Assembly (NCBI GenBank): GCA_046563655.1
Contig: CM102286.1
Coordinates: 10,478,001 to 10,542,000 of the forward strand
Source of the DNA: Yuukianura sp. NJ FZ-2021
Lineage: Eukaryota
Length of the DNA stretch: 64,000 nt
Direction: 5' to 3'
Positions 15,172 through 34,780 of this stretch are shown piece by piece (position 1 is the first letter of the stretch; each line of letters begins with the position of its first letter). The translations under genes were made by a program, and so were the position numbers. Under the pieces are notes generated by a model. It saw only the letters and a program-made list of their open reading frames with translations, searched no databases and was not told where the DNA came from.

Positions 15172-18100
15172 CTATTGAGTTGACTTGCGTTTCATGCGGT
15201 AAATGGCAGGATCATCATTGTTTTGATCTTCTGCTGGCAACAGTACGCAGACTTTGGAGACAGGACGTTTGACAGAACCTTTGTTCGTCTTCAGTTTCAC
15301 GACACGAACAAGTCCGTCTTGACCAGGATATGTCTCCATGACTCTGCCCATTCGCCATTTCAGTTGTGGAGTGTCATCTTCTTTGATTATGACCAAGTCA
15401 CCGACTGCAATGTTGCGGTTCTGACTTCTCCATTTGTTTTTCTCTTGTAAGGAGTTGATGTACTCCTTGTGCCAACGAGTCCAGAAGTGCTGGACCATTT
15501 GAGTGGTTCTTTGCCACCTGGAGAGTCTGTTCTCCTTTTGATTGGTCAAGTCAGCATCTGGAACAGCACAAAGAGAATTATTAATGAGAAAATGACCTGG
15601 TGTTAATGGTTCCAAATCATTAGGATCTGGTGACAATGGACAAATTGGTCTTGAGTTTAGCACTGCCTCCACCTGACAGAGGACAGTGAATAGCTCTTCT
15701 AATGTGAGCGTTGTAGAACCAATTATGCGACGAAGGTGATACTTGGTGCTTTTTACACCAGCTTCCCAATACCCTCCTTGACTTGGCGCTGAGGGTGGGT
15801 TGAAGTGCCATTGGACACCTTTGTCACCTAAAAAGTCGCAGACTGAAGAATTGAATTTTTGGTTTTGAACTAATTCTCTCAGTTCACGCTCTGCTCCGAC
15901 GAAGTTAGAGCCACAGTCACTGTAAATTGCGACTGGCAATCCTCTCCTGGACACAAAACGTTTGAGAGTGGCAATGAATGCCTCTGTCGTCAAGGCTGTG
16001 ACTGCCTCTAGGTGAACTGCCTTGGTGGAAAAACAAACAAAAATGCAAAAATACCCATTAAAGTGTTTTTTACCACGGCCGGTCACTTCCTGTAGAATGA
16101 ATGGGCCAGCAAAGTCCACGCCTGCGTGTGTGAACGGAGGTGATGGAGTTGTTCTGCCCTTTGGTAGTTGACCCATGAGTTGCTCTGTGACCTTGACCTT
16201 GAGTTTTTTGCACGTCATGCAAAGTCGTCGAATTTGGCGGATGATGACTCTGGCCTTCAGGAACCAGTACTCAGTCTGCAAATTGGACCAGAGCAACTGA
16301 TATCCAGCATGATGGAGGTGGTGATGTGTGTTTCTGATGATGAGAATCGCCAGTAGATTTTTTCCATTCAGAATAATTTGATGTTTTTGCGATTCTGGGA
16401 GTGACGAATTGCCAAGTCTCCCTCCAATGCGCAGAATTCCATGCCTGTCTAGAAATGGGGATAGAGCAACCAACTTTGATTCGTTAGAAACTTTACCCTT
16501 GACCTTGAGGTCATCCAAATCCTGTTGAAAATCCTGTTGTTGTGCCAATTTGACCAAAGTTGTAACTGCACATGCCCGTTCCTCCACTGTCAGAGGACCA
16601 TTGACAGTTAAAACTTTTGGATGGCAGTGACCTGTATGAACTTTTAAGTTATTGACAAACCTTTTGACATAGCACATTACATGAATCAGTTTGTTCAAAT
16701 TTGAGTATTTTGACAAAATTGAGTAGTCACTTACGACCTTTGAGGTCAAAACCTTGCGTACCTCTGGAATTTGACCTACGTCTGGTGTTTCAAACGTAGT
16801 AATTCCATGTTCTTGAAGAAACGAAGGTCCGTGCCACCATAAGTCGCAGTTCAGAAGTTCCGTTGAGGTCATCCCTCGAGTGCCACAGTCAGCAGGATTT
16901 TGTAATCCTGGGATGAACTTCCACGACTTGGCTGGAATCTTCTCCTGAATGGCTGAGACTCGGTTGGCAACAAATGTTTTTAATTGGCGTGACTGTAGGC
17001 GGAGCCATTTCAGCACAATTTCGCTGTCAGACCAGGCAGTGACTTGTGCATTGATTTGTGTTGACTCCAAAATTGACATGACGAGTTTTGATACAAGATG
17101 AGCTCCACAAAGTTCCAACTTGGGGAGACTCTGTTGCTTAATTGGAGCGACCTTGGTTTTGGCTGCAATTAGGTTGACTGCGATGGAATTCTGAAAAAAT
17201 ACTCTCAAAAAAACTGCACCACAGTAAGCACTTTCAGATGCATCCGAAAATGCATGAATTTCCATTTTTAAGTTTCCCGCGGGTTTAATGCACCGAGGAA
17301 TTTTGACCTGACAAATGTTTACCATGTGACCTTGGTGCTGTACCCATCGTTCCTGAAGTTCGGCTGGCAACTCGTCGTCCTATTGTAGGCGCTTAGAGTC
17401 AACTGCCTCCAGCCAAAGCTTCTGTAAGAAGATTTTTGCCACGATGGTCAATGGCGCCAAAAATCCCAACGGGTCAAAAACCCTGGAAATTTCTGCCAAA
17501 ACTGTCCGTTTTGTGATTCTGGACATGACCTTGGGCTCATATCCTGAGAAATGGAACATGTCAGTCCTTGAGTCCCAAGACACCCCTAAAGCTTTGGAAT
17601 CATTTTGTGAATTGGAATCAATGTTAGGGTTAACTTCACATAATTTCTCAGGAATTGATTTTAACACAGAAGTTGAGTTGGAATCAATCTTACAGATTTC
17701 CAACTTTGCACAACTTACTAATGCTGTCAATTCCTGACGAAGTTTGATGGTTTCTGCCTCTGTCTCACTTCCCCCCATAAAGTCGTCAACATAGAAGTTG
17801 TTGAGAAGGGCGTGTTTAGCCAGTGGAAATTTGTCCCCGTCATCAATGGCTAGTTGACGGAGGCATCTGACCGCGGAGAACGGAGCTGAGGCTGTACCAT
17901 AGGTGATTGTCTTCAACCTAAATTCCTGAATTGGGTCAAGGTGAGACTTTCGCCACAAAATCGATTGTAAACATTGATCATTTTTATGTACCAAGAATTG
18001 TCGGTACATTTTGGTTACATCACCCTTTAGTGCAATTGGGTACTTACGAAACTGAAGGAGTAAGGAAAAAATGTCTCCTTGTACCGTTGGACCCACTTGA

Positions 18101-20352
18101 AGGCATTGGTTAAGTGAAATGTCACTTGATGTTTTTGCGGAGCCATCAAAAACGACTCGAAGTTTGGTGGTGGTGCTGGACTCCTTGAGAACAAAGTGGT
18201 GCGGAAGGTAGACGACCTTTGACCCGGATGGAAGTTGCATGTCTGTCACTACTTCCATATGACCCAATTTTTGGTACTCATCCATGAACTTGATGTAGTC
18301 AGGATGATGGACCGGGTTGAGTCGTAGCCTCTTTTCCACTTGTTGGAGTCTGCGCAGTGCGATGTCGCGGCTGTCACCTAATTTGGAAATGTTTTCATTA
18401 AGTGGCAACCTTACGACGTACCTTCCCTCCTCATTTCGAGTGTGCGTAGCGACGAAATGGTCCTCGCAAAATTGCTCCTCGATAGTGTAGTTTGATCGCT
18501 TTGGTAGTTCCTCCAGTTCCCAGAATTTCTGTAAAATGTTAACACTGGCATGGTTGACGTGAACTGTAGGTTGACTGCTTGTACCCGTCGGCCCTGATAT
18601 GATCCAACCAAATGTTGTCTACTGTGCAATTGGAGTCTGAGGCGGACCAATGATTTTGCCACTGAGTGTGATTGATGCTGCGAACTCAGCTCCGAGAATT
18701 ATGTCGACATCTCTCGGATTGGTGAAATTGGGATCTGCCAATTGTACCTGCATGAGGTGAGTCCACTTCTGCGAGTTGACTCTGAATGATGGCAAGAAAC
18801 CTGTGACTTTTTGCAAAATTAGTGCATTAACTTGAATTTTAAAATTGGAAATGCGTGAGCACAGGTCAAATGTGACTTGACCGAGTGCCTTCCCAGCATT
18901 GGAACCTGAAATTCCTACAATGTTTACATTAGACTTCTTACGTGCAAGTCCGAGTTTCGTCACACAGCGGTCGGAGATGAAGTTAGATTCTGATCCCTGA
19001 TCCAATAGGATACGACATTCTTGGAATTCGCCTGCTGCATCGATCAGTTTGACAACGGCGGTACTTAACAGTACTTTGGAAGTGGAGCAATGATTTGCTA
19101 ATGTTGGAGTCTCTTCATCAATTTGTTGCGACGTAGAGTGAGCTTCAGCCGTGTCAAAATGAAGTAAAGTGTTATGTGGCTCTTGGCACGTCCGACATCT
19201 GTACTTGGACTGGCACTTTCCTACATTATGCTTGGAACTGAGACAGTTAGTACACAAATTTTTTTTCTTGACAAAACTAAATCTGTCTTTCACTGTTAAC
19301 TGTAACCATTTCTCACATTTGAACAAACCATGTTCACCTTGGCACTGTGGACAAGTGAACTTGTGTTTTTGTTCAGTGGGCTTACTGTCTGTGAAGCTGG
19401 AATGAGCCTTACTTTGGCCAGAAGATCCGGAAGACGAAGATGCTGAATTTGATTTTAGTCCCCGGATGTAGTTTTCCAGAAATTCCTTTGTTTCGGAGAA
19501 TTTCGGAACCTCTGAGCCCTTTAGTTGCTTAGTCCAGTCACGACGGCAGTCTGGATCCATCTTTTCCTTGAGAAGATAAACGATGATTGAATCCCAATGT
19601 TCTGTTGGTTCGTTGAGGGTCTCTAACTGTGTGAGAGATTCCTTGAAACAATCGATCAATTTCCTTAACTGAGTGGAATTTTCTTGTTTCAGTTTTGGAA
19701 AGTTGACCAATTTCTCAATTAGTGTGAAAATGAGTTCTCTTCTGTTATGATAACGTTCTTCCATCAGCTGCCATGCTCCTTGGAAGTTGTCATCAGTGAT
19801 GGGAGTGCCCTTGATGACAGTAGCTGCTTCACCCTTCAGAGAGGAGTGAAGATACCAAAATTTCACACTGTTCGGTAAGGTAGTGTTGTTGATGATGGTA
19901 CTGCGAAATAAATCGCGAAAAGTCAGCCAATCTTCATACTTTCCGTCGAAAGTTGGTAAGGACATCTTCGGAAAGTAAGAATGGACATTGTGGTGATGTG
20001 ACTGTGCAGAAGTTGAAGGAACTGATGGACCTTGTACTGATACTGGAGTTTGTACTGGCTGAATCATGATCAGCTTTTCGTTGATAGTGCCAATCATGGT
20101 GACAAATTCTATGTACGTCTTTGAATGATCTTCAATATCTTCATCGTTTGTCGTGGCGATGATGATCTTGTTGTGTAGTGTGTCGAGGTCATTCCTGACT
20201 CTGATCAGTTCCCGTTCTGCAGTTTTGACTGTTAGATTTGGTGTCTCTTCATTGTATAGTGCGATGACCCTGTTGTGCATAAGGATCTGTTGGCCCAAAC
20301 TTTGACGTAACTTGAGAAGATCAGCCAATGTTGTTTTTGTTCCTGCTGCCAT
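15172..20352 (-). pseudogene. BEL/Pao gag-pol polyprotein interrupted by two in-frame TAG codons (18619-18621, 17380-17382)
   Basis: Gag (LPTFDGKYEDWLTFRDLF, three CCHC knuckles), protease LLDQGS, RT (YLPHH, KLRVVFDGS, FYVDD), Pao RNase H (HAFSDASE, NPADCGTRG) and integrase (GVDFAGP, SDCGSNF, GGYWE). All three ORF pieces share one frame: PIAQ*TTFGW and LQ*DDEL. Confidence 0.92.
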
Positions 20353-20469
20353 GCTGTCAGTCTCAGAAAACAACAATTAACCAAACTGTAATGTTAGTGG
20401 ATGATTTGACCTTAAACGTTTGTCGTCGGTTGATGCTGACTGTAGTCTTCCGTTGACATCCGCTCAAGG

Positions 20470-20864: not shown

Positions 20865-21249
20865 CATGACCCCAAGTGACCTAGTTCCGGGTCAAAAGTC
20901 AACTTTTTTTCATATTAACGTCCTGCTAGCTGGGAAGCGGAAGGAACCCACCCCACAGCGCCGGGTGATCCACCGTCACCCCCGGGTGACCCACCGTCAC
21001 ACACCCCGGGTGACCCACACTCACACCACTGGGTGAGCCCACGCCCCTCCCCCGGGGAACACACCCCAACGCCTCCTGGGGTGCGGAGCTAAAAAGTAAG
21101 GGGAACCCATCCCTACGCCCCCTGGGGTGCGGAGCAAAAAAGTGGGGGGAAGCCATCCCCACGCCCCGGGGTAACCCCACATTCCCCACCTGGGGGGAAA
21201 CCGCCTTTTGGCTTGAGCTATTTCGTTATGCGCGGTTTACAACCGGTTT

Positions 21250-22418
21250 ATTATAATAGCGAAGCTATTATGATAAAAGTGGTTTGTCTGTCCGTCCCTC
21301 TGTCCCTCTGTCCGTCCGTCCGTCCGTCCGGACCATGAACCTCGGAAACTACTGGTCCGATTTGATTCCGGTTTTCACCAGTGACTATGTCATGACCCGG
21401 GCTTGGTCACTATTGAATATGACCCCTGGGCGTCAACTCCTTCCGGGTCAAAGGTCAACCGGTTTTATCCCCGGTAACATGCAAAATGACCTCTACAAAA
21501 GTTGTTCATCTCATCGAGGGGAACAACTTTTGTGTGTAATCTGTGACCCTAGGTCACCTGCTTCCGGGTCAAAATCGATTTCAAAAGTCATTTTTAATGC
21601 AAGTGTGGGTAAAAAAAACTCTGCTTGTGAGACTGGAAAGGCAATTGGCATGGGAGTTGGTTCTCTGCTTAGCAAAAAATCTATTACGCAGTTGACATAT
21701 ACACGTGTCCAGACAGAGTCACCTATTCATTCGTTCTGTTGTTGCTTCATCCGAATCCCACCTCTCTGTCCACATCTTTGTTTGATGTCACTGCGACACC
21801 CCATGTGGGTTAAGGAAGTGGGGGAAACACCCCCTCTCCCCCGTGGAACCCACCCCCTCTCCTCCCGGGGAACCACCCCTCTTCCCTGGGGGAACCACCC
21901 CCTCTCCCCCGGGGAACCACCCGTTCTTCCCCGAGGAACTCACCCCTCTCCCCTGGGGCACACACCCCCTCTCCCCCGGCGCACACACCCCCTCTCCCCG
22001 GCGCACACACCCCCTCTCCCCTGGGGCACACCCCCCCTCTCCCCCGGGGAACACACCCCCGCGCTTCCTGGGGTGCGGAGCAAAAAAACGGGGGAACACC
22101 CCCACTCCCCCCAGAGGGACGGGAAACTGGCGGAACACACCCCCGCGCTTTCTGGGGTGCGGAGCAAAAAAGTGGGGGAAACACCCCCACTCCCCCGAGG
22201 AGGGCGGAAAAGTGGGGGAAGACACCCACTGCCCCTGGGGGGGCGGAAAATTGGGTGGTAACACCCTTACTCCCCCGGGGGGCAGGCGTCAAAGTGGGGG
22301 GAACACACCCCCACTCCCCCGGGGGGGGGGCGGAAAGTGGGGGAACACCCCCACCCCCTGGGGGGCAACCCCTTATTTCTGAGCTATTACCAGTATGCGC
22401 GGTTTACAACCGGTTTAT
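21250..22418 (+). mobile_element. Helentron-like element family B, head-to-tail with family A
   Basis: 5' hairpin TTATAATAGC-GAA-GCTATTATGATAA, (GTCC)n microsatellite, a core homologous to family A (GCAAAATGACCTCTACAAAAGTTGTTCATCTC), C/G-rich tandem units of about 21 bp at 21830-22370, and the same 3' end TATGCGCGGTTTACAACCGGTTT. Confidence 0.75.
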
Positions 22419-23450: not shown

Positions 23451-23783
23451 TGAAAAAAATATAACATTTGTAGCATTTCTGTTTACGATGAAATTCTTAA
23501 CTCAGCCGCTACAAATTTCAGGCAACAATGTAATTACATGCAACGATGATTACACATGGCGGTCGGCTCTGAATTCCATTGGAGTTTTTGGTAATTAACG
23601 AATTAATACAACGAACTAATTAATTAACGAATTAATATAGTTAACGAAATTAGGATCAGAACATAGTTACGTAGACTTCACACACTTTCAGAGCACAGCA
23701 AAGGTCTCAGTTGCGTGTATCGGGTTTAATCCCGTTGCCGATTTTAATTACGCCTTTAACAGGCAACGTTGATTAGATTGCAT

Positions 23784-25800
23784 AGTAGAGTGTTCGAACG
23801 TTGTTTTACCTCATTTATTTTTAGCTCAGCCGCGGGGGCTAGTCGGGCGCAATATTGGGGAGGGGAAAAACCTAAAAATATTCTCAGCCCATAGAAATCC
23901 CCCTCCCCAATAAATTATAAAATACAAAATGTTAACAAGAAAATAGTCGACGAAAAATGTTGACAATGAAAAAGTCAATTACTTAATTTTAATTTCAATA
24001 AGATAATAAATTAAAAACAAAATGTATGAAAAATATAGTTATTATTTAGATTAAGTTAATTGAGATGATTTTGTATAATAAAAAGACCAAACAAAAATAA
24101 TAAGTTTTTTTTTTAAAAATATGAACGTATGATCAGTTAACTTAATACGTTGCGCGCGATATTGGAGGAGAATGAAAAACCACATGGATTCTTATTGCTA
24201 TGATGAACTGAATGTGACTGCGATACATAGTTTTAGACGTGGACAGTCTCCTACTCCTTTTTGAGAGTATTTTGAGATTGGAATTTCCAACACCCGAGGC
24301 TATTTGACAAAACAGAACGAAACTATGCAAAGTTTTCACACACAGTTTTAGACGTGGACCGTCTCCCCCTCTTTTTTGAGAGTATTTTGAGATTGGAATT
24401 TCCAACACCCGAGGCGATTTGACAAAACAGAACGAAACTATGTGTGATAGCCTACTGTCTAAGTGCTTGTAACTACTTTTCTGCGGTCGCTGGTTCGAAT
24501 ACCACACGGATCAACGTTTGTGGTTAAGAAGTTACAAGTACTTAGATACAAGATTGGGGTCAATGTTATTGCTATTTTCAAATTTTTTTTGGTTGAGGAT
24601 TAAAAAAGTTCTAAAACCAATTCTCTAGAAAAACGTTTTTTGAAAAATTCTAAAATAGTAATTCAACCCTTTTCTTGGAAAAGACTCGCTTCTGTTGGAA
24701 AACGTATCCCCCAATATTTTAAAAGATGGCTACAGAGTACAAAGTATTCAAGCTGAAACGCTTGAACACCTCATGGCTACAGCGTTGGATTTATCCAGCC
24801 CAGTCCTGGGGAAGCCTTTGGGCCGTGTGAGCCAGCCCTTGGACGCCAGCCCTTGGACGCCAGCCCTTGGACGCCAGCCCTTGGACGCCAGCCCTTGGAC
24901 GCCAGCCCTTGGACGCCAGCCCTTGGACGCCAGCCCTCAATTCGCATGAATTTTTAACGTAATATAACAACTTCACTGCATAATACAATGGCCTCTCTAC
25001 ATAATACAATGGCGTCTCTGCATAATACAATGGCCTCTCTGCATAATACAATGGTCTCTCTGTATAATACAATGGCCTCTCTGCATATTACCATGGCCCA
25101 GTTGTATAATTCCACAACGTCATTACATAATGCCGAGTTTATTCTGTACAACATAGCGAGTTTGCGAGAGTAAAGTCTAGACTTTGTCAATGTCACGGGA
25201 ACTTACTCCGTGAGTACACCTTGCAGAGTTCTTCCTCGGGATTATTTCCCGCAGGTAACCTTCCTTCGAGAGTCAGATCATCGTTAATACCATGGTCACG
25301 TTGTATAATACCATGACCTCTCTGCATAATACCATGGCCCAGTTGTATAATACCACAACGTCATTACATAATGCCGAGTTTATTCTGTACAACATAGCGA
25401 GTTTGCGAGAGTAAAGTCAGACTTTGTCAATGTCACGGGAACTTACTCCGTGAGTACACCTTGCAGAGTTCTTCCTCGGGATTATTTCCCGCAGGTAACC
25501 TTCCTTCGAGAGTCAGATCATCGTCAATACCATGGTCACGTTGTATAATACCATGGTCACATTGTATAATACCATGGTCACGTTGTATAATGCCATGGTC
25601 ACGTTGTATAATGCCATGGTCACGTTGTATAATACAATAACCTCACTGCATAATACAACATTTTTTGTCAATTTTACATCCAACCACCACCACCACCACC
25701 ACAACCCCAACGTGCCCACCCATGGAAAAGTATAAATAGGGACATTGACTTGCTCATCTCTCAGTTTCATTTCAGACGTTGAGCTGTGAAGACGTGAAGA
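23784..25800 (+). repeat. Left terminal inverted repeat (2017 bp)
   Basis: Reverse complement of 28161-29957 with scattered substitutions. Contains a 115-bp duplication (24229-24440), a 14-bp minisatellite (24831-24937), 21-bp minisatellites, a 240-bp duplication and (CAC)n. Confidence 0.95.
25731..25766 (+). promoter_or_regulatory. Core promoter (TATA + Inr) upstream of the ATPase gene
   Basis: TATAAATA at 25731 and arthropod initiator TCAGTT at 25761 (30-nt spacing); ATG at 25819. Confidence 0.7.
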
Positions 25801-25818
25801 ATCTGTGGACTATATCTC

Positions 25819-26633
25819 ATGGATACCAGTACAGCGTGCGATATTTGCTGCAGACAATTCTCACGAAGGGACGCATTGAAACGACACAAGTTAACTTGTC
25901 ATAGTAGTGTCGCAGTATCGAAAATGCTTCAGGTATGCATGAATCAGCGGGAAAAATCTACTATGTTTCGACATGTACACTCTGGGAAAAAGTTTGACCC
26001 GCATTTGGTTGCACCGTTTACTATGTGCATCAGTGGAATGACTCAGAGCGGCAAAAGCACCCTTGTGAAGCAAATACTTCTACGACGAAACGAAATTATC
26101 GAGACTAATATTGACGAGCCATTGGAACGTATCATGTATTGCTACACTGAGTTCCAGCCTACGCTGTTTGGAGAATTGAAGACCAAGATTCCAACTATAC
26201 AATTTCATCGTGGGCTCCTGAAAAATGGCATGACGGAACCGACAAGCCGTCAGTCGTCGTCCTTGACGATTTGATGCATGAAGCAGGCAAAAACGGAGAA
26301 GTTGGAGCTGCGTTCACAAGGACTTCGCATCACCGCAACGTATCACTCATCATTCTTGTGCAAAACTTTTTTCACAGGAATATGAAAGAAATCACGTCAA
26401 ACTGTCACTACATTGCTCTAATGAAGAATCCGCGAGGCTCTCAATTTGTAGCTTGTCTTGGACGTCAAATGAATGGAGGAAAGAAGAATACAACCATGGA
26501 AGAAGCCTACAAGGAATGCATGTTAAAGCAATATGGATATCTATTCATCGATTTAACTCAACGACAAAATGATTTGTTTCGCATTAGAGATAATATATTT
26601 CCTGAAAATTGTCGAATCTATGCTAATGAATGA
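25819..26633 (+). pseudogene. Polinton/adintovirus-type DNA packaging ATPase (A32/FtsK-like) with an N-terminal C2H2 zinc finger; one frameshift at about 26217
   Basis: C2H2 finger CDICCRQFSRRDALKRHKLTCH and Walker A PFTMCISGMTQSGKST. After restoring one C the protein reads HRGL-PEKWHDGTDKPSVVVLDDLM (Walker B), FTRTSHHRNVSLIILVQNFF, HYIALMKNPR, LGRQM and YGYLFIDL. Confidence 0.85.
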
Positions 26634-26636
26634 ATG

Positions 26637-26682
26637 AATAAACACATTACACGATAAAAGTTCTATTTTCAAGTTTTTTATT
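26637..26682. terminator. Convergent polyadenylation signals
   Basis: AATAAA on the plus strand at 26637-26642 and on the minus strand at 26682-26677, in the 97-bp gap between the two stop codons. Confidence 0.55.
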
Positions 26683-26730
26683 TTGAAAATTCGGAATCTA
26701 ACGAATTTACAGTCATAAAGGTGTATAATT

Positions 26731-28128
26731 CTACGAAATTACGCTAGTGAGAAACTCTCCAAGTATTGGTAATGCGGCAGCGAGAAGAGCTGGCAGGAAC
26801 CCGCCGTGCTGTATAAGTAGTTTTTTCTTGTCTTCAATCGATCCTTTAGCTTCTGCAACACGTTTAATCTTATATCGATGCGGTCTCAAGATATTTTTGA
26901 CGGTGGCTTCAATAGGAATGTTGCCCTGGATTACGTCCTGAACACATTTGTGTAACCCAAGAATTTGACCAGGAGACGCTGTGGAGAGCAGTGTCTCGCG
27001 TATAATAAGGGAGTGTTGGTTCATCTGGTGGAGAAATTGATAATGTCGTATGGGACCTGGTGATGGTTTAGCTCCTCCAGTTTGTCTATACTCTTCTTCC
27101 CCTTCTTCATCCCTTTCGTCTTCCTCGTTTTCCTCCTCTTCTTCTACTTCTTCTTCTACTTCTTCTTCCCATTCTTCATCCCCCTCGTCTTCCTCATCAC
27201 CTTCTTCTTCTTCATTTTCTACATCACTTTCCACGTGCGGGCGATTTCTAGAAAGCTTTTTAGGTTCATCTCGACCGAGCAAGCCTCGGTGGCTGATCGG
27301 AAGCAGATATTTTGGAATGCCTGTCTGAATCATAAAGTCTACGATGACAGGAATCATTTGTCTTGTCAACTTATATCTTCCATCCGCAAGTTTTCGTATT
27401 CCCTCCTCGAACTCGCTCCTGGGTATGTTGGCATCACCCAGACTAACGCTATTGTTCGCAAAGGTTGCACCATTTGCTACAAAAAATTGTGCTAGCTGTT
27501 TTCCAACAGCTGAAAACTGGTCCATAGTAAACGGTGGAGTTGTCGGTGCTGCTGTCGGCGTTTCATCTTTCGCTATTTGCGATTCTTTTTTAAATCTCTT
27601 GGAAAATGGCATCTCGAGCGCGTCATTCGGCTTTACCACAGTATTTGACCAACCATTCGTTGGATTTTCTGACCAGGTGGTAATTCGGTCATATCTGTCT
27701 TCGGTTTTTCTGGCTGACTTTTCCGGTACACCATCCCATCCGGTAAAGTTACTTGTAGCCATATCATTCCACCGCCTATCGTTTACAACGTTCACATTGA
27801 CGTAGCCTTCCCTTTGCTTCCGTTGATTTTCCCAGTTCTGGCGTAATTCCGTTTGCATCATATGATTCTGAAGTTCGATTGGAATGTTGTTCCCAGAATC
27901 TCGCGAATTACGCTCATGAAGCTCCATTGGTCCACGGCTCTGAGACATGTTCATTGTATGTTGTGGTAAGTATTGTACGGGTTTAGTATCAAGCAAAAAA
28001 CCATCATGGATTTGCTTTTCTCCAAAATAACTTTTGCAAGGGCTGTTTTGCTGAGACTCATATGTCTCAAGCTGATCCAGTAGACTGTTGTAGTCGTCTT
28101 GGTGAACAAGAATGTATTTTTGCGACAT
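26731..28128 (-). CDS. 465-aa Maverick-type hypothetical (putative virion core / membrane-lytic precursor) protein
   Basis: Intact ORF from the ATG at 28128 (the TTG start at 28182 lies inside the TIR). N-terminus MSQKYILV, a long poly-Glu tract, and the C-terminal domain ..VIQGNIPIE..KKKLLIQHGGFLPALLAAALPILGEFL*, which resembles small conserved ORFs found next to the ATPase in animal Mavericks. Confidence 0.7.
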   Translation of the reverse strand: MSQKYILVHQDDYNSLLDQLETYESQQNSPCKSYFGEKQIHDGFLLDTKPVQYLPQHTMNMSQSRGPMELHERNSRDSGNNIPIELQNHMMQTELRQNWENQRKQREGYVNVNVVNDRRWNDMATSNFTGWDGVPEKSARKTEDRYDRITTWSENPTNGWSNTVVKPNDALEMPFSKRFKKESQIAKDETPTAAPTTPPFTMDQFSAVGKQLAQFFVANGATFANNSVSLGDANIPRSEFEEGIRKLADGRYKLTRQMIPVIVDFMIQTGIPKYLLPISHRGLLGRDEPKKLSRNRPHVESDVENEEEEGDEEDEGDEEWEEEVEEEVEEEEENEEDERDEEGEEEYRQTGGAKPSPGPIRHYQFLHQMNQHSLIIRETLLSTASPGQILGLHKCVQDVIQGNIPIEATVKNILRPHRYKIKRVAEAKGSIEDKKKLLIQHGGFLPALLAAALPILGEFLTSVIS

Positions 28129-28160
28129 GACTGTTAGCCTAACCGCTCCAGATGGTAAAA

Positions 28161-29957
28161 TCTTCACGTCTTCACAGCTCAACGTCTGAAATGAAACTGA
28201 TAGATGAGCAAGTCAACGTCGCTATTTATACTTTTGTATGGGTGGGCACGTTGGGGTTGTGGTGGTGGTGGTGGTTGGATGTAAAATTGACAAAAAATGT
28301 TGTATTATGCAGTGAGGTTATTGTATTATACAACGTGACCATGGCATTATACAACGGGACCATGGTATTATACAACGTGACCATGGTATTATACAATGTG
28401 ACCATGGTATTATACAACGTGACCATGGTATTGACGATGATCTGACTCTCGAAGGAAGGTTACCTGCGGGAAATAATCCCGAGGAAGAACTCTGCAAGGT
28501 GTACTCACGGAGTAAGTTCCCGTGACATTGACAAAGTCTAGACTTTACTCTCGCAAACTCGCTATGTTGTACAGAATAAACTCGGCATTATGTATTGACG
28601 TTGTGGTATTATACAACTGGGCCATGGTAATATGCAGAAAGGCCATTGTATTATGCAGAGAGGCCATTGTATTATACAGAGAGGGCATTGTATTATACAG
28701 AGAGGCGATTGTATTATACAGAGAGGCCATTGTATTATGCAGAGAGGCCATTGTATTATGCAGAGAGGCCATTGTATTATGCAGAGACGCCATTGTATTA
28801 TGTAGAGAGGCCATTGTATTATGCAGTGAAGTTGTTATATTACGTTAAAAATTCATGCGAATTGAGGGCTGGCGTCCAAGGGCTGGCGTCCAAGGGCTGG
28901 CGTCCGAGGGCTGGCTCACACGGCCCAAAGGCTTCCTCAGGACTGGGCTGGATAAATCCAACGCTGTAGCCATGAGGTGTTCAAGCGTTTCAGCTTGAAT
29001 ACTTTGTACTCTGTAGCCATCTTTTAAAATATTGGGGGATACGTTTTCCAACAGAAGCGAGTCTTTTCCAAGAAAAGGGTTGAATTACTATTTTAGAATT
29101 TTTCAAAAAACGTTTTTCTAGAGAATTGGTTTTTAGAACTTTTTTAATCCAAAAAATTTGAAAATAGCAATAACATTGACCCTAGTCTTGTGTCTAAGTA
29201 CTTGTAACTTCTTAACCACAAAGGTTGACCCGTGTGGTATTCGAACCAGCGACCGCAGAAAAGTAGTTACAAGCACTTAGACAGTAGGCTATCACACATA
29301 GTTTCGTTCTGTTTTGTCAAATCGCCTCGGGTGTTGGAAATTCCAATCTCAAAATACTCTCAAAAAAGAGGGGGAGACGGTCCACGTCTAAAACTGTGTG
29401 TGTGAAAACTTTGCATAGTTTCGTTCTGTTTTGTCAAATTGCCTCGGGTGTTGGAAATTCCAATCTCAAAATACTCTCAAAAAGGAGTGGGAGACTGTCC
29501 ACGTCTAAAACTATGTATCGCAGTTACATTCAGTTCATCATAGCAATAAGAATCCATGTGGTTTTTCATCCTCCTCCAATATCGCGCGCAACGTAGTAAG
29601 TTAACTGATCATACGTTCATATTTTTAAAGAAAAACTTATTATTTTTGTTTGGTCTTTTTCTTATACAAAATCATCTCAATTAACTTAATCTAAATAATA
29701 ACTATATTTTTCATACATTTTGTTTTTAATTTATTATCTTATTGAAATTAAAATTAAGTAATTGACTTTTTCATTGTCAACATTTTTCGTCGACTATTTT
29801 CTTGTTAACATTTTGTATTTTATAATTTATTGGGGAGGGGGATTTCTATGGGCTGAGAATATTTTGAGGTTTTTTCCCCTCCCCAATATTCCGGCCGACT
29901 ATCCCCCGCGGCTGAGCTAAAAATAAATGAGGTAAAACAACGTTCGAACACTCTACT
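28161..29957 (-). repeat. Right terminal inverted repeat (1797 bp)
   Basis: Reverse complement of the left TIR. It lacks the 240-bp duplication and has different minisatellite copy numbers. Confidence 0.95.
28195..28230 (-). promoter_or_regulatory. Mirror-image core promoter (TATA + Inr) upstream of the minus-strand gene
   Basis: Minus-strand TATAAATA (28230-28223) and TCAGTT (28200-28195); first ATG at 28128. Confidence 0.7.
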
Positions 29958-30320
29958 TGCATATGGCGGTCAGCTCTAAATTCCATTGAAATTTTTGTGT
30001 CTACAACGTAATCGTTACCTCAGCCACTTCAAATTTCCAATTGGCGTCCAATTAACGAAATTAGGATTAGAACATAGTTACGTTGTTACACATCACATTC
30101 TTTCAGAGCCATAGCAAAGGTCTCACTTTCGTGTATCTGGTTAAAAGTTGCACTCAAAAAAAATGTGTCAATACGTTGTTTACATCGCGCTACCTTTTAG
30201 TTGTTATCTAAAACGTTCAGAACACATTCTTACGCAGAATTGGCACGTTGTTTAATTCGATGTCCATGTAAAAGCTGATAGGAAAACCACTCTCATGAAA
30301 ATTTCACGTTTCGAAGTTCA

Positions 30321-30894: not shown

Positions 30895-32220
30895 TTTAGT
30901 TAACAAAGTAGATTGGGAGCCCTTACCTCCGCACAGTGAGAAATTTATTTGGTGTAAGTTGCACTCAAACAAAATGTGTCAAAACGTTGTTTACATCGCG
31001 CTACATTTTAGTTGTTATTTAAAACGCTCAGAACACATCCTTATGCAGAATTGGCACGTTGTTTAATTCGATGTCCATGTAAAAGCTGATATTTAGTTAA
31101 CAAAGTAGATTGGGAGCCCTTACTTCCGCACAGTGAGAAATTTATTTGGTAAAGGTTGCACTCAAACAATATGTGTCAATACGTTGTTTACATCGCGCTA
31201 CATTTTAGTTGTTATTTAAAACGCTCAGAACACATCCTTATGCAGAATTGGCTCGTTGTTTAATTCGATGTCCATGTAAAAGCTGATATTTAATTAACAA
31301 AGTAGATTGGGAGCCCTTACCTCCGCACAGTGAGAAATTTATTTGGTATATGTTGCACTCAAACAAAATGTGTCAAAACGTTGTTTACATCGCGCTACAT
31401 TTTAGTTGTTATTTAAAACGCTCAGAACACATCCTTATGCAGAATTGGCACGTTGTTTAATTCGATGTCCATGTAAAAGCTGATATTTAGTTAACAAAGT
31501 AGATTGGGAGCCCTTACTTCCGCACAGTGAGAAATTTATTTGGTAAAGGTTGCACTCAAACAATATGTGTCAATACGTTGTTTACATCGCGCTACATTTT
31601 AGTTGTTATTTAAAACGCTCAGAACACATCCTTATGCAGAATTGGCTCGTTGTTTAATTCGATGTCCATGTAAAAGCTGATATTTAATTAACAAAGTAGA
31701 TTGGGAGCCCTTACCTCCGCACAGTGAGAAATTTATTTGGTATATGTTGCACTCAAACAAAATGTGTCAAAACGTTGTTTACATCGCGCTACATTTTAGT
31801 TGTTATTTAAAACGCTCAGAACACATCCTTATGCAGAATTGGCACGTTGTTTAATTCGATGTCCATGTAAAAGCTGATATTTAGTTAACAAAGTAGATTG
31901 GGAGCCCTTACCTCCGCACAGTGAGAAATCTATTTGGTATATGTTGCACTCAAACAAAATGTGTCAAAACGTTGTTTACATCGCGCTACATTTTAGTTGT
32001 TATTTAAAACGCTCAGAACACATCGTTATGCAGAATTGGCTCGTTGTTTAATTCGATGTGCATGTAAAGGCTGATATTCAATTAACAAAGTAGATTGGGA
32101 GCCCTTACCTCCGCACAGTGAGAAATTTATTTGGTAAAGGTTGAACTCAAACGAAATGTGTCAATACGTTGTTTACATCGCGCTACATTTTAGTTGTTAT
32201 TTAAAACGCTCAGAACACAT
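30895..32220. repeat. 197-bp tandem repeat, about 6.7 copies, partly organised as 394-bp dimers
   Basis: TAACAAAGTAGATTGGGAGCCC recurs at 30901, 31098 and onward every 197 bp with alternating variants. A detached partial copy lies at 30143-30280. Confidence 0.95.
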
Positions 32221-32566
32221 GTGTACTTACCACCAGCTTAGTGTAAAAATGCGACCAACACGATATAGCTTGTGCAATATGGCTCAACACCGGTTTCGTG
32301 CCGCGCTGCAAAGTGGCATCTATTATGTTTTACAACAAAGGCATTATAAGAAGCAAAAGTTGCTGCTTCTTACCTTTTTGTGAAAAGTATCAGTGAGAGT
32401 TTTGTTTACCACCTTCCCTACCCCTCTTGTGGAATATATTTTTTTCTATGCGAAGCTGACATTTAGGTAAATTAACCGCATAAAACCACGGCTTCTACTC
32501 CGTTCTGGTAACTCAAGCAGGCCAGATTAAAAGCTAAATGTGTCAATAGAAATTTGGGGCGTGATA

Positions 32567-34780
32567 GTCTTATAATTGGAGCGCTTCAATAAACAACCAA
32601 TGGTTTAGTGCGTCAAAAATCCGCCTTTTACGTAATTCAGTTTTCAATCCAAAGATTGTGTTGTTAAGGGTCGTCAAACTTAGGCTAAAATCATGGCCGT
32701 ATTCTAGGGCGTAGTTGAAGGCGTAATTTTTCCTGTTACAATTTAATGCTGAAATTAAGCTGCAAACAATTTGAGTAAGAATGTCACGTTACAACTTGGT
32801 GTGCCAGCATTAACCATTCCTTCTTAACCACGAGTCACACAATTAGAATTTCCAGGCAAGTATGCTTCACAGTATAGAATTTTTTTTTAGTGCAAAGGTT
32901 TTATGTGTTGCGTCAGATGGTCTTATAATTGGAGCGCTTCAATAAACAACCAATGGTTCAGTGCGTCAAAAATCCGCCTTTTACGTAATTCAGTTTTCAA
33001 TCCAGAGATTGTGTTGTTAAGGGTCGTCAAACTTAGGCTCAAATCATGACCGTATTCTAGGGCGTAGTTGAAGGCGTAATTTTTCCTGTTACAATTTAAT
33101 GCTGAAATTAAGCTGCAAACAATTTGAGTAAGAATGTCACGTTACAACTCGGTGTACCAGCATTAACCATTCCTTCTTAACCACGAGTCACACAATTAGA
33201 ATTTCCAGGAAAGTTTGCTTCACAGTATAGAAATTTTTTTTAGTGCAAAGGTTTTATGTGTTGCGTCAGATGGTCCTGTAATTGGTGCGCTTCAATAAAC
33301 AACCAATGGTTCAGTGCGTCAAAAATCCGCCTTTTAAGTAATTCAGTTTTCAATCCAAAGATTGTGTTGTTAAGGGTAGTCAAGCTTAGGCTGAAATCAT
33401 GGCCGTATTCTAGAGCGTAGTTGAAGGCGTAATTTTTCAAGTTACAATTTAATGCTGAAATTAAGCTGCAAACAATTTGAGTAAGAATGTCACGTGACAA
33501 CTTGGTGTACCAGCATTAACCATTCCTTCTTAACCACAAGTCACACAATTAGAATTTCCAGGCAAGTATGCTTCACAGTATAGAATTTTTTTTAGTGCAA
33601 ATGTTTTATGTGTTGCGTCAGATGGTCTTATAATTGGAGCGCTTCAATAAACAACCAATGGTTTAGTGCGTCAAAAATCCGCCTTTTAAGTAATTCAGTT
33701 TTCAATCCAAAGATTGTGTTGTTAAGGGTAGTCAAGCTTAGGCTGAAATCATGGCCGTATTCTAGAGCGTAGTTGAAGGCGTAATTTTTCCTGTTACAAT
33801 TTAATGCTGAAATTAAGCTGCAAACAATTTGAATAAGAATGTCACGTTACCACTTGGTGTACCAGCATTAACCATTCCTTCTTAACCTCGAGTCACACAA
33901 TTAGAATTTCCAGGAAAGTTTGCTTCACGGTATAGAAATTTTTTTTAGTGCAAAGGTTTTATGTGTTGCGTCAGATGGTCTTATAATTGGAGCGCTTCAA
34001 TAAACAACCAATGGTTTAGTGCGTCAAAAATCCGCCTTTTAAGTAATTCAGTTTTCAATCCAAAGATTGTGTTGTTAAGGGTCGTCAAGCTTAGACTGAA
34101 ATCATGGCCGTATTCTAGAGCGTAGTTGAAGGCGTAATTTTTCCTGTTACAATTTAATGCTGAAATTAAGCTGCAAACAATTTGAGTAAGAATGTCACGT
34201 TACAACTTGGTGTACCAGCATTAACCATTCCTTCTTAACCACAAGTCACACAATTAGAATTTCCAGGCAAGTATGCTTCACAGTATAGAATTTTTTTTTA
34301 GTGCAAAGGTTTTATGTGTTGCGTCAGATGGTCTTATAATTGGAGCGCTTCAATAAACAACCAATGGTTCAGTGCGTCAAAAATCCGCCTTTTAAGTAAT
34401 TCAGTTTTCAATCCAAAGATTGTGTTAAGTATCGTCAAACTTAGACTGAAATCATGGCCGTATTCTAGAGCGTAGTTGAGGGCGTAATTTTTCCTGTTAC
34501 AATTTAATGCTGAAATTAAGCTACAAACAATTTGAGTAAGAATGTCACGTTACAACTTGGTGTACCAGCATTAACCATTCCTTCTTAACCACAAGTCACA
34601 CAATTAGAATTTCCAGGCAAGTATGCTTCACAGTATAGAAACTTTTTTTAGTGCAAAGGTTTTATGTGTTGCGTCAGATGGTCTTATAATTGGAGCGCTT
34701 CAATAAACAACCAATGGTTCAGTGCGTCAAAAATCCGCCTTTTAAGTAATTCAGTTTTCAATCCAAAGATTGTGTTAAGG
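32567..34780. repeat. 353-bp tandem repeat, about 6.3 copies
   Basis: TATAATTGGAGCGCTTC-like motif at 32571, 32924, 33277, 33629, 33982, 34335 and 34685. Confidence 0.95.

Follow-up and report, generated by a model that had tools for sequence, protein, structure and literature searches.

A 6.2-kb, two-gene element with 2-kb inverted ends, likely a non-autonomous Polinton/Maverick derivative

The 64-kb window analysed here (Yuukianura sp. NJ FZ-2021, assembly GCA_046563655.1, contig CM102286.1, positions 10,478,001 to 10,542,000) contains a 6174-bp unit, at window positions 23784-29957, that we consider likely to be a non-autonomous, trans-mobilised Polinton/Maverick (adintovirus-like) derivative, produced by gene loss and end duplication and present here as an older, decaying insertion. 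Two very long terminal inverted repeats (TIRs) enclose a short core with just two genes, which converge: one encodes a packaging ATPase, and the other, here called P0001, encodes a precursor protein ending in a module like adenovirus pX. The original prediction, made from the letters of the window, had described a mini-Polinton that is replicated and integrated in trans, and this fits well with the Polinton-type ends, the 5-bp target-site duplication (TSD), the nesting of the ATPase among those of Polinton-like loci, and the absence of the helper genes. It went further in proposing a segment of a multipartite virus, a proposal taken up below.

The coordinates, ends, TGCAT duplication, arm lengths and 2360-bp core (25801-28160) given for the unit in that prediction all proved correct when re-derived from the sequence (Table 1). 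The termini read AGTAG...CTACT and the unit is flanked by TGCAT on both sides, in keeping with the AG...CT TIR ends and 5-8-bp TSD of a Polinton. Globally aligned, the two arms have 1736 matching and 56 mismatching columns and 230 columns with gaps, which makes 96.9% identity; away from the tandem arrays this rises to about 98%, and the 220-bp difference in arm length, like the alignment gaps, is due to changes in the copy number of the 14-nt and 21-nt tandem repeats. The 17-nt terminus AGTAGAGTGTTCGAACG occurs twice in the 64 kb, in inverted orientation, once at each end of the unit, against a chance expectation of 0.11 in the window; two or more occurrences were found in none of 100 shuffles. 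Near each terminus there is also an 11-nt inverted pair, TTGGGGAGGGG/CCCCTCCCCAA, with members about 40 nt apart (23845-23915; mirror 29826-29896), a possible hairpin in the outermost ends, to judge from the letters. The TIRs yielded no Polinton protein remnants by tblastn or tblastx, and no nucleotide similarity to the rest of the window or to any of the 80 related loci discussed below. Rfam and tRNA scans gave no match.

Which Polinton genes does the unit lack? Neither in it nor elsewhere in the window did tblastn with 11 reference proteins, or tblastx with the 16 closest related loci, detect a pPolB, integrase, capsid or protease. The tblastn queries included the pPolB proteins of L033 and L070, two longer, more distant and Pfam-annotated loci, along with the capsid-sized open reading frames (ORFs) and protease of the same two loci, which likewise found no match in the window. 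The window's sole integrase-like domain, where an rve-family integrase was sought, lies in a BEL/Pao retrotransposon at 15172-20376. Of the Polinton virion module, which comprises an ATPase, jelly-roll capsid proteins and an adenain-like protease, only the ATPase is present. Because pPolB, integrase, capsid and protease are absent, the unit is a non-autonomous derivative and not a Polinton by the definition given in PMC5499653.

The plus-strand gene encodes a packaging ATPase of the A32/FtsK/IVa2 type, the class recognised by Walker A and B motifs and by PF04665 or PF02456. Walker A (GMTQSGKST) and Walker B (VVVLDD) can be read in the protein, and ten relatives were found at E <= 0.001, of which seven, at 61-79% identity, each carry PF04665; the C-terminal part of the window protein itself matches Pox_A32 at E 5e-4 with 20.0 bits, just below the 22.8 cutoff. 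Its N-terminal 28 residues form a C2H2 zinc finger, C7-x2-C10-x12-H23-x4-H28, which gives a weak score with Pfam zf-C2H2_4 (E 0.005 on the N part) and can be read in six of seven fetched relatives (P0004, P0006, P0007, P0008, P0010 and a 508-aa ORF of L003). The class assignment carries one blemish, a break that splits the window copy into two frames near 26215. Loci L001 and L003 are in frame across it, N-part residue 133 abutting C-part residue 5, and the contigs of four out of four public sequencing runs differ from the window at the break by one letter in length, at full depth. Since the relatives and the run contigs are unbroken at this point, the frame break is either private to the window copy or an assembly error, and the prevailing form of the element appears to have an unbroken ATPase frame. 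The statement that each gene of the unit is complete must then be corrected for the ATPase of the window.

Where does this ATPase come from? A metagenome scan with the ATPase alignment gave the 80 related loci, and a maximum-likelihood tree was built from 79 of them plus the window, L015 being excluded for its split match. The window ATPase falls in a starred four-row clade with L001, L002 and L003, and this clade is nested in a starred 15-row clade in whose contigs pPolB, integrase or both stand beside the ATPase. The ATPase phylogeny that had been suggested as a check thus places the window gene among pPolB- and integrase-bearing contigs. A P0001-like module is found in 44 of the 80 loci, pX-like in 42 of them and the N-terminal part of the protein, module A, alone in L001 and L003; none was detected in the remaining 36 contigs. 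Wherever the partner occurs it follows the ATPase and shares its strand (44 of 44), and in no locus is the pair convergent. In L033 and L070 all genes are on one strand, in the order pPolB, ATPase, pX-like gene (in L033), rve-plus-chromodomain integrase, three further ORFs, and adenain-like protease; the further ORFs have no family match, the label "MCP?" of the capsid-sized ones going by size and position only. Order is variable among the 15 closest loci, in which pPolB precedes the ATPase or the ATPase faces pPolB: a reversed pPolB follows the ATPase in L004, L007, L008, L010 and L014, and in L002, L005 and L011 a reversed integrase does, L002 reading ATPase, reversed integrase, pX, module A. 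No inverted repeats were seen in six close loci, whose contigs are short, the 17-nt terminus is absent from the 80 loci, and no relatives turned up when IMG/VR was scanned with P0001, with the C part of the ATPase and with the 17-nt terminus. From these gene orders, the ATPase and its partner are a conserved neighbouring pair of ordinary Polintons, one member of which has been turned round in the window.

These gene orders bear on the simplest alternative, a plain internal deletion in a parent whose outermost, inward-facing genes were this very pair, with the deletion junction at the 97-bp spacer. The variable order among the closest relatives makes a convergent parent conceivable. We think such a history improbable nonetheless, since the partner is co-directional downstream of the ATPase in 44 of 80 loci and convergent in none, both genes end in their own AATAAA, and no truncated ORF is found at the spacer. 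Nor is the pair outermost in the canonical relatives, as the original prediction had allowed it might be; in L033 and L070 it is internal, between pPolB and integrase. The further argument that a simple deletion must leave truncated genes is a weak one, as the two genes are already conserved neighbours in the relatives. It is their orientation that matters: as the pair is co-directional there, the convergent layout requires an inversion or an end duplication, not deletion alone or a designed segment.

The inner ends of the TIRs suggest which of these took place. It had been noted that each gene starts just inside its TIR and has its own poly(A) signal, and both observations hold: arm identity runs to 25800 and 28161, 19 nt before the ATPase ATG and 33 nt before the P0001 ATG, and an AATAAA serves each gene (Table 1). 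With a TATAAATA box in each arm upstream of the start codon, two unrelated genes appear to share one TATA-box promoter and one 5' leader, carried in the inner TIR ends. The simplest cause of an identical promoter and leader before unrelated genes is that one end was copied, inverted, onto the other; a plain deletion would require such an end duplication anyway. A spliced-leader origin of the common 5' leader was dropped, there being no GT where the arms diverge.

A scenario for the unit as a trans-mobilised derivative can be put together from these features. The element would retain the two ends required by a helper's protein-primed polymerase and rve-type integrase. Of the virion module it would retain a pair, the zinc-finger packaging ATPase and the precursor ending in an adenovirus-pX-like module, and the genes for the polymerase, integrase, capsid proteins and maturation protease would have been lost. 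The mini-element would be copied and inserted in trans by complete relatives that share its genome, giving the 5-bp duplication. One end, promoter included, was probably copied in inverted form onto a truncated or rearranged other end, which would have produced the 2-kb TIRs and placed each gene close behind a copy of the same promoter-bearing repeat. In defective adenovirus genomes the packaging end can be present as a long inverted duplication, and end-copying events of this kind take place in protein-primed linear genomes. The mini-element resembles such adenovirus genomes, and bidnavirus segments, in the form of its ends: both are short linear genomes, replicated by protein priming, in which one end is repeated at the other as a long inverted copy; they are free viral DNA, whereas the mini-element is a chromosomal insertion with a TSD. 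The copy in the window would be an older, decaying insertion in satellite-rich DNA, to judge from an arm divergence of about 2-3%, the break in the ATPase frame and many private amino-acid changes.

The partner gene encodes a 465-aa protein that reads as a mosaic: module A, an acidic linker, and a pX-like module bounded by the first of two QxGG motifs. In an exhaustive HMMER search the pX-like module matched 388 proteins at E <= 0.001, 11 of them at <= 1e-10 and most about 110 aa long; among the best 150 of the 388, 138 have a QxGG within the C-terminal 45 residues and a hydrophobic tail after it. Pfam Adeno_PX (PF05829) is reached at E <= 0.01 by four of 56 aligned members, the best at E 8e-6, the window module being below threshold, and the PDB chain "PX" (9lr9_E) matches the family profile weakly, at E 0.71. 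The Gly-Gly motif and hydrophobic tail that mark adintovirus pX are present in P0001 as QHGG/FLPALLAAALPIL. Its first QxGG sits exactly where the stand-alone relatives of about 110 aa start, and we infer that P0001 may be a precursor cut by an adenain/Ulp1-type protease that the element itself lacks. Certain other pX-like members, P0028 and P0042 among them, have an N-terminal FLYWCH, C2H2 or BED finger and an acidic stretch before the pX-like module, which suggests that these may be DNA-binding core-protein precursors.

Of module A, residues from about 190 to 290 match P0015 (255 aa) and P0030 (194 aa), which are free-standing, and it also matches the C-terminal parts of ATPase-fused ORFs, namely P0004 (E 1e-16), P0005 (E 2e-11) and the 508-aa ORF of L003; the first residues of P0001, YILVHQDDYNSLL, align by eye with the stretch YLLVVKQDDYKRFL that follows the ATPase domain in L003. 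Module A thus seems to belong to a rare family that is either free-standing (P0015, P0030) or fused behind an ATPase (P0004, P0005, L003). In L001 (ORF P0004, 527 aa) and L003 (790-2316, 508 aa) zinc-finger ATPase and module A make up one continuous ORF; L002 has a pX-like gene next to a separate module A, in the reverse order. The small virion genes appear to be shuffled and fused freely among the closest relatives. A word-based homologue search with the full 465-aa P0001 found no relatives, the acidic linker having probably drawn the words, and the same search with P0015 returned only its self-match. The closest parallel in architecture is with the adintovirus accessory virion genes PLA2X and GasderminX, which are described as ending in a C-terminal pX-like domain (Starrett et al. 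2021, PMC8502044). These, as described there, share with P0001 an N-terminal accessory domain followed by a pX-like domain with Gly-Gly motif and hydrophobic tail; they differ in the accessory domain, module A being neither PLA2 nor gasdermin in Pfam.

Is the inverted structure real? Five public runs from two studies contain 27-51% of the unit's sampled words, and the contigs of four of these runs were compared with the region 25600-28360; the window itself may derive from one of the two studies. The convergent junction at 26634-26730 is bridged by X1 record 4 (26122-26895), X2 record 9 (25802-26958) and X4 record 27 (25877-26978), and the right TIR/core boundary by X2 record 12 (26969-28352) and X3 record 23 (28074-28209). 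No bridge of the left boundary is present among the contig pieces listed; contigs there start at 25789-25802, as is expected at a branch of the assembly graph. The original prediction had recognised mis-assembly of the inverted repeat as a danger, and with contigs of two studies bridging the convergent junction, and the right boundary also bridged, that danger is very small. Long inverted repeats with tandem arrays are indeed error-prone, and the one-letter frame break in the ATPase may be an assembly error. A false inverted duplication is hardly credible, however, given these bridges (X1, X2 and X4 for the junction, X2 and X3 for the boundary), arms that differ by 56 substitutions and several indels, unlike a duplicated read, and an intact 5-bp duplication around the unit.

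The same contigs give an impression of abundance. Word depth in the core is about 2000 in X1, about 115 in X2 and about 170-200 in X4, and in three runs of one sample the depth at the inner TIR end is about 5-10 times that of the core, where 2 times is expected; summed word depth of contigs is not copy number. As a hint, then, the element is probably multi-copy, and there is a further hint of TIR-bearing DNA beyond the core's share. Diverged ATPase contigs with depth 3-120, which leave into unlike sequence at 26488, 26522, 26532 and 26612, probably represent further Polinton ATPase genes within these genomes. Between the window and the dominant contigs there are about 20 fixed differences in 2.5 kb and one indel. 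Among the differences listed, a small sample, eight are synonymous and seven non-synonymous in the ATPase, and six and 14 respectively in P0001, a pattern that fits decay of the window copy. As far as these differences go, we infer that neither reading frame is interrupted in the dominant contigs of either study.

Could the unit nonetheless be one segment of a multipartite Maverick-like virus, with pPolB, integrase, capsid and protease on sister segments that have the same ends? Bidnavirus segments are TIR-bounded units of about 6 kb, which the unit recalls in size and layout, and the depth excess at the inner TIR would allow for more TIR-bearing DNA. Parents, solo ends or smaller derivatives would explain the excess just as well, however, and the copy in the window, integrated with a TSD, diverged and broken, looks like any ordinary transposon insertion. 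The loci with the closest ATPases have pPolB or integrase beside them, that is, they belong to unsegmented elements. In the window, the 80 related loci and the viral contigs these ends did not turn up on any other unit, so that the multipartite proposal gains no support from the present analysis, and we judge it very improbable.

A less remote alternative, one that we regard as unlikely, is that the mini-element is a satellite-like parasite of a Polinton virus. Both genes would be functional, expressed from the promoters built into the TIRs and kept by selection, with a helper supplying pPolB, integrase, capsid and protease. In the full form of this idea, doubtful to the same degree when taken as a whole, the finger-bearing ATPase would recognise the 14-nt and 21-nt arrays of the TIRs and steer helper capsids to the mini-genome, and the helper's protease would cut the precursor at its two QxGG sites to give a core or membrane-active pX-like protein. 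There is an adenovirus parallel: IVa2, a homologous ATPase, is described as binding repeated packaging-domain motifs near one genome end (PMC5033970). By analogy it may be speculated that the zinc finger and the TIR arrays act like IVa2 and its packaging motifs. The open frames in the dominant contigs of both studies would be expected of such a parasite, as would the TIR-borne TATA box and separate AATAAA of each gene, the finger that opens the ATPase in the window and in six of seven fetched relatives, and the position of the first QxGG at the exact start of the stand-alone 110-aa relatives. One might expect open frames and high copy number of any young non-autonomous family, though, and the synonymous and non-synonymous counts are without power on selection. 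The window copy is decaying, and the binding of the finger to the TIR repeats is conjectural.

We return to a non-autonomous derivative mobilised in trans as the likely reading, and several points weigh against it. No further element with these ends, whether helper or second copy, was seen in the 64-kb window, the 80 loci or the viral contigs. The contig depths cannot stand in for copy number, and if one study is the source of the window the two independent studies become one. With none of 44 loci convergent, no intermediate of the proposed rearrangement has been observed. The frames that appear open in the dominant contigs are a feature that a purely junk derivative need not keep; the share of synonymous changes, 8 of 15 in the ATPase and 6 of 20 in P0001, comes from a sample too small to decide selection.

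How does the mini-element compare with known systems? Polintons are described with a TSD of 5-8 bp, a size of 13-25 kb and TIRs of 100-1500 bp (PMC10748475). The mini-element agrees with them in its AG...CT ends, 5-bp TSD, A32/FtsK-type ATPase, adjoining pX-like protein and position in the ATPase tree, and departs from them in its size of 6.2 kb, its TIRs of 1.8-2.0 kb, the loss of pPolB, integrase, capsid and protease, and the convergence of a pair that is co-directional in relatives. A nearer parallel comes from butterflies, where polB-less polinton-related insertions are reported to have stayed active and TIRs of about 2 kb occur (2026 preprint, bioRxiv 10.1101/2025.02.07.637071). Like the mini-element, those are polymerase-less derivatives and have 2-kb ends, and they seem to be active still; as described in the preprint, they are large, keep most virion genes and have hexon and adenain genes inside the TIRs, whereas the TIRs of the mini-element are non-coding and repetitive, carry only a promoter, and enclose the two genes left. 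Polymerase loss and 2-kb TIRs seem therefore to have precedent, though not, among the elements that the preprint describes, in so small a unit. Transpovirons, linear TIR-bounded derivatives of about 7 kb that belong to the Polinton-centred class, are considered in PMC5499653 to have arisen by gene loss and to depend on a larger virus. They are like the mini-element in being small, TIR-bounded, probable products of gene loss that need a larger virus. As set out there, they kept a helicase/inactivated-polymerase gene and lost the virion module; the mini-element is the reverse and is integrated in an animal-type genome. Finally, Foldback/Galileo-type transposons, as described in PMC3573991, also have long inverted ends of tandem repeats around a short core. 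The ends, the TSD and both genes of the mini-element are of Polinton type, and no P-element-like or other transposase is present.

Table 1. Features of the mini-element and its flanks, in window coordinates
Feature	Position	Strand	Basis
Left TSD, TGCAT, 5 bp	23779-23783	.	read from sequence; same letters beyond right end
Left TIR, 2017 bp, begins AGTAGAGTGTTCGAACG; non-coding, internally repetitive	23784-25800	+	inverted-repeat alignment
Left TIR, 115-nt tandem repeat, x1.9	24225-24442		
Left TIR, 14-nt tandem repeat, x7.6	24831-24937		
Left TIR, 21-nt arrays	24976-25131, 25285-25372, 25526-25656		
TATAAATA box, left TIR inner end, ~80 nt upstream of ATPase ATG	25731-25738	+	read from sequence
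Packaging ATPase gene, A32/FtsK/IVa2 type	25819-26633	+	Pfam, relatives, motifs
Spacer between convergent genes, 97 bp	26634-26730	.	read from sequence
AATAAA, 4 nt after ATPase stop codon	26637-26642	+	read from sequence
AATAAA for P0001, inside spacer	26677-26682	-	read from sequence
P0001, 465-aa mosaic virion-protein precursor	26731-28128	-	ORF and homology
P0001 pX-like module, residues 353-465	26734-27072	-	
P0001 QxGG motif 2, residues 440-443, then hydrophobic tail FLPALLAAALPILGEFLTSVIS	26800-26811		
P0001 QxGG motif 1, residues 349-352	27073-27084		
P0001 acidic linker, residues 295-346, 36 of 52 D/E			
P0001 module A, residues about 1-290	27259-28128	-	
Right TIR, 1797 bp, left-arm repeat families at lower copy number	28161-29957	-	inverted-repeat alignment
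Mirror TATAAATA box, right TIR inner end, upstream of P0001	28223-28230	-	read from sequence
Right TIR, 21-nt arrays	28323-28432, 28606-28826		
Right TIR, 14-nt tandem repeat, x3.6	28865-28915		
Right TIR, 117-nt tandem repeat, x1.9	29297-29516		
Right TSD, TGCAT	29958-29962	.	read from sequence

The surroundings of the unit are repetitive. The BEL/Pao long-terminal-repeat retrotransposon already mentioned has a gag-pol frame of about 1730 codons on the minus strand, with two in-frame stops and the Pfam domains DUF1759, Pao retrotransposon peptidase, DUF5641 and integrase zinc-binding; its presence indicates that the host is an animal. At 20946-22365 there is a block rich in G+C, made up of 23-124-bp tandem repeats (GGGGAACACACCCCC...-type units), with long spurious ORFs on both strands. 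The right half of the window is filled by a satellite array (about 34750-64000) of some 120 copies of a 150-bp unit, 85-99% identical and interrupted every few units by spacings of about 620-920 bp. Between element and satellite there are two further tandem arrays with 95-96% matches, a 197-bp repeat in 6.7 copies (30895-32220) and a 353-bp repeat in at least 4.1 copies (32563-34000).

What would such an element mean for the biology of Polintons? Polintons count as transposons and as viruses at once, and their packaging and their parasites are almost unknown. Should the unit prove no more than the decaying product of a deletion, it would be an ordinary entry for the repeat catalogue. The mini-element retains a packaging ATPase with a finger and a core-protein precursor with protease-type sites, however, and it seems abundant. 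As such it may offer a natural system for learning which end sequences are required by the Polinton polymerase, integrase and packaging motor, whether non-autonomous Polintons compete with their helpers, and how very long inverted ends originate in protein-primed replicons. Were the satellite alternative to prove true, the mini-element would be the animal-genome counterpart, among Polintons, of the hyperparasitism practised by virophages and transpovirons.

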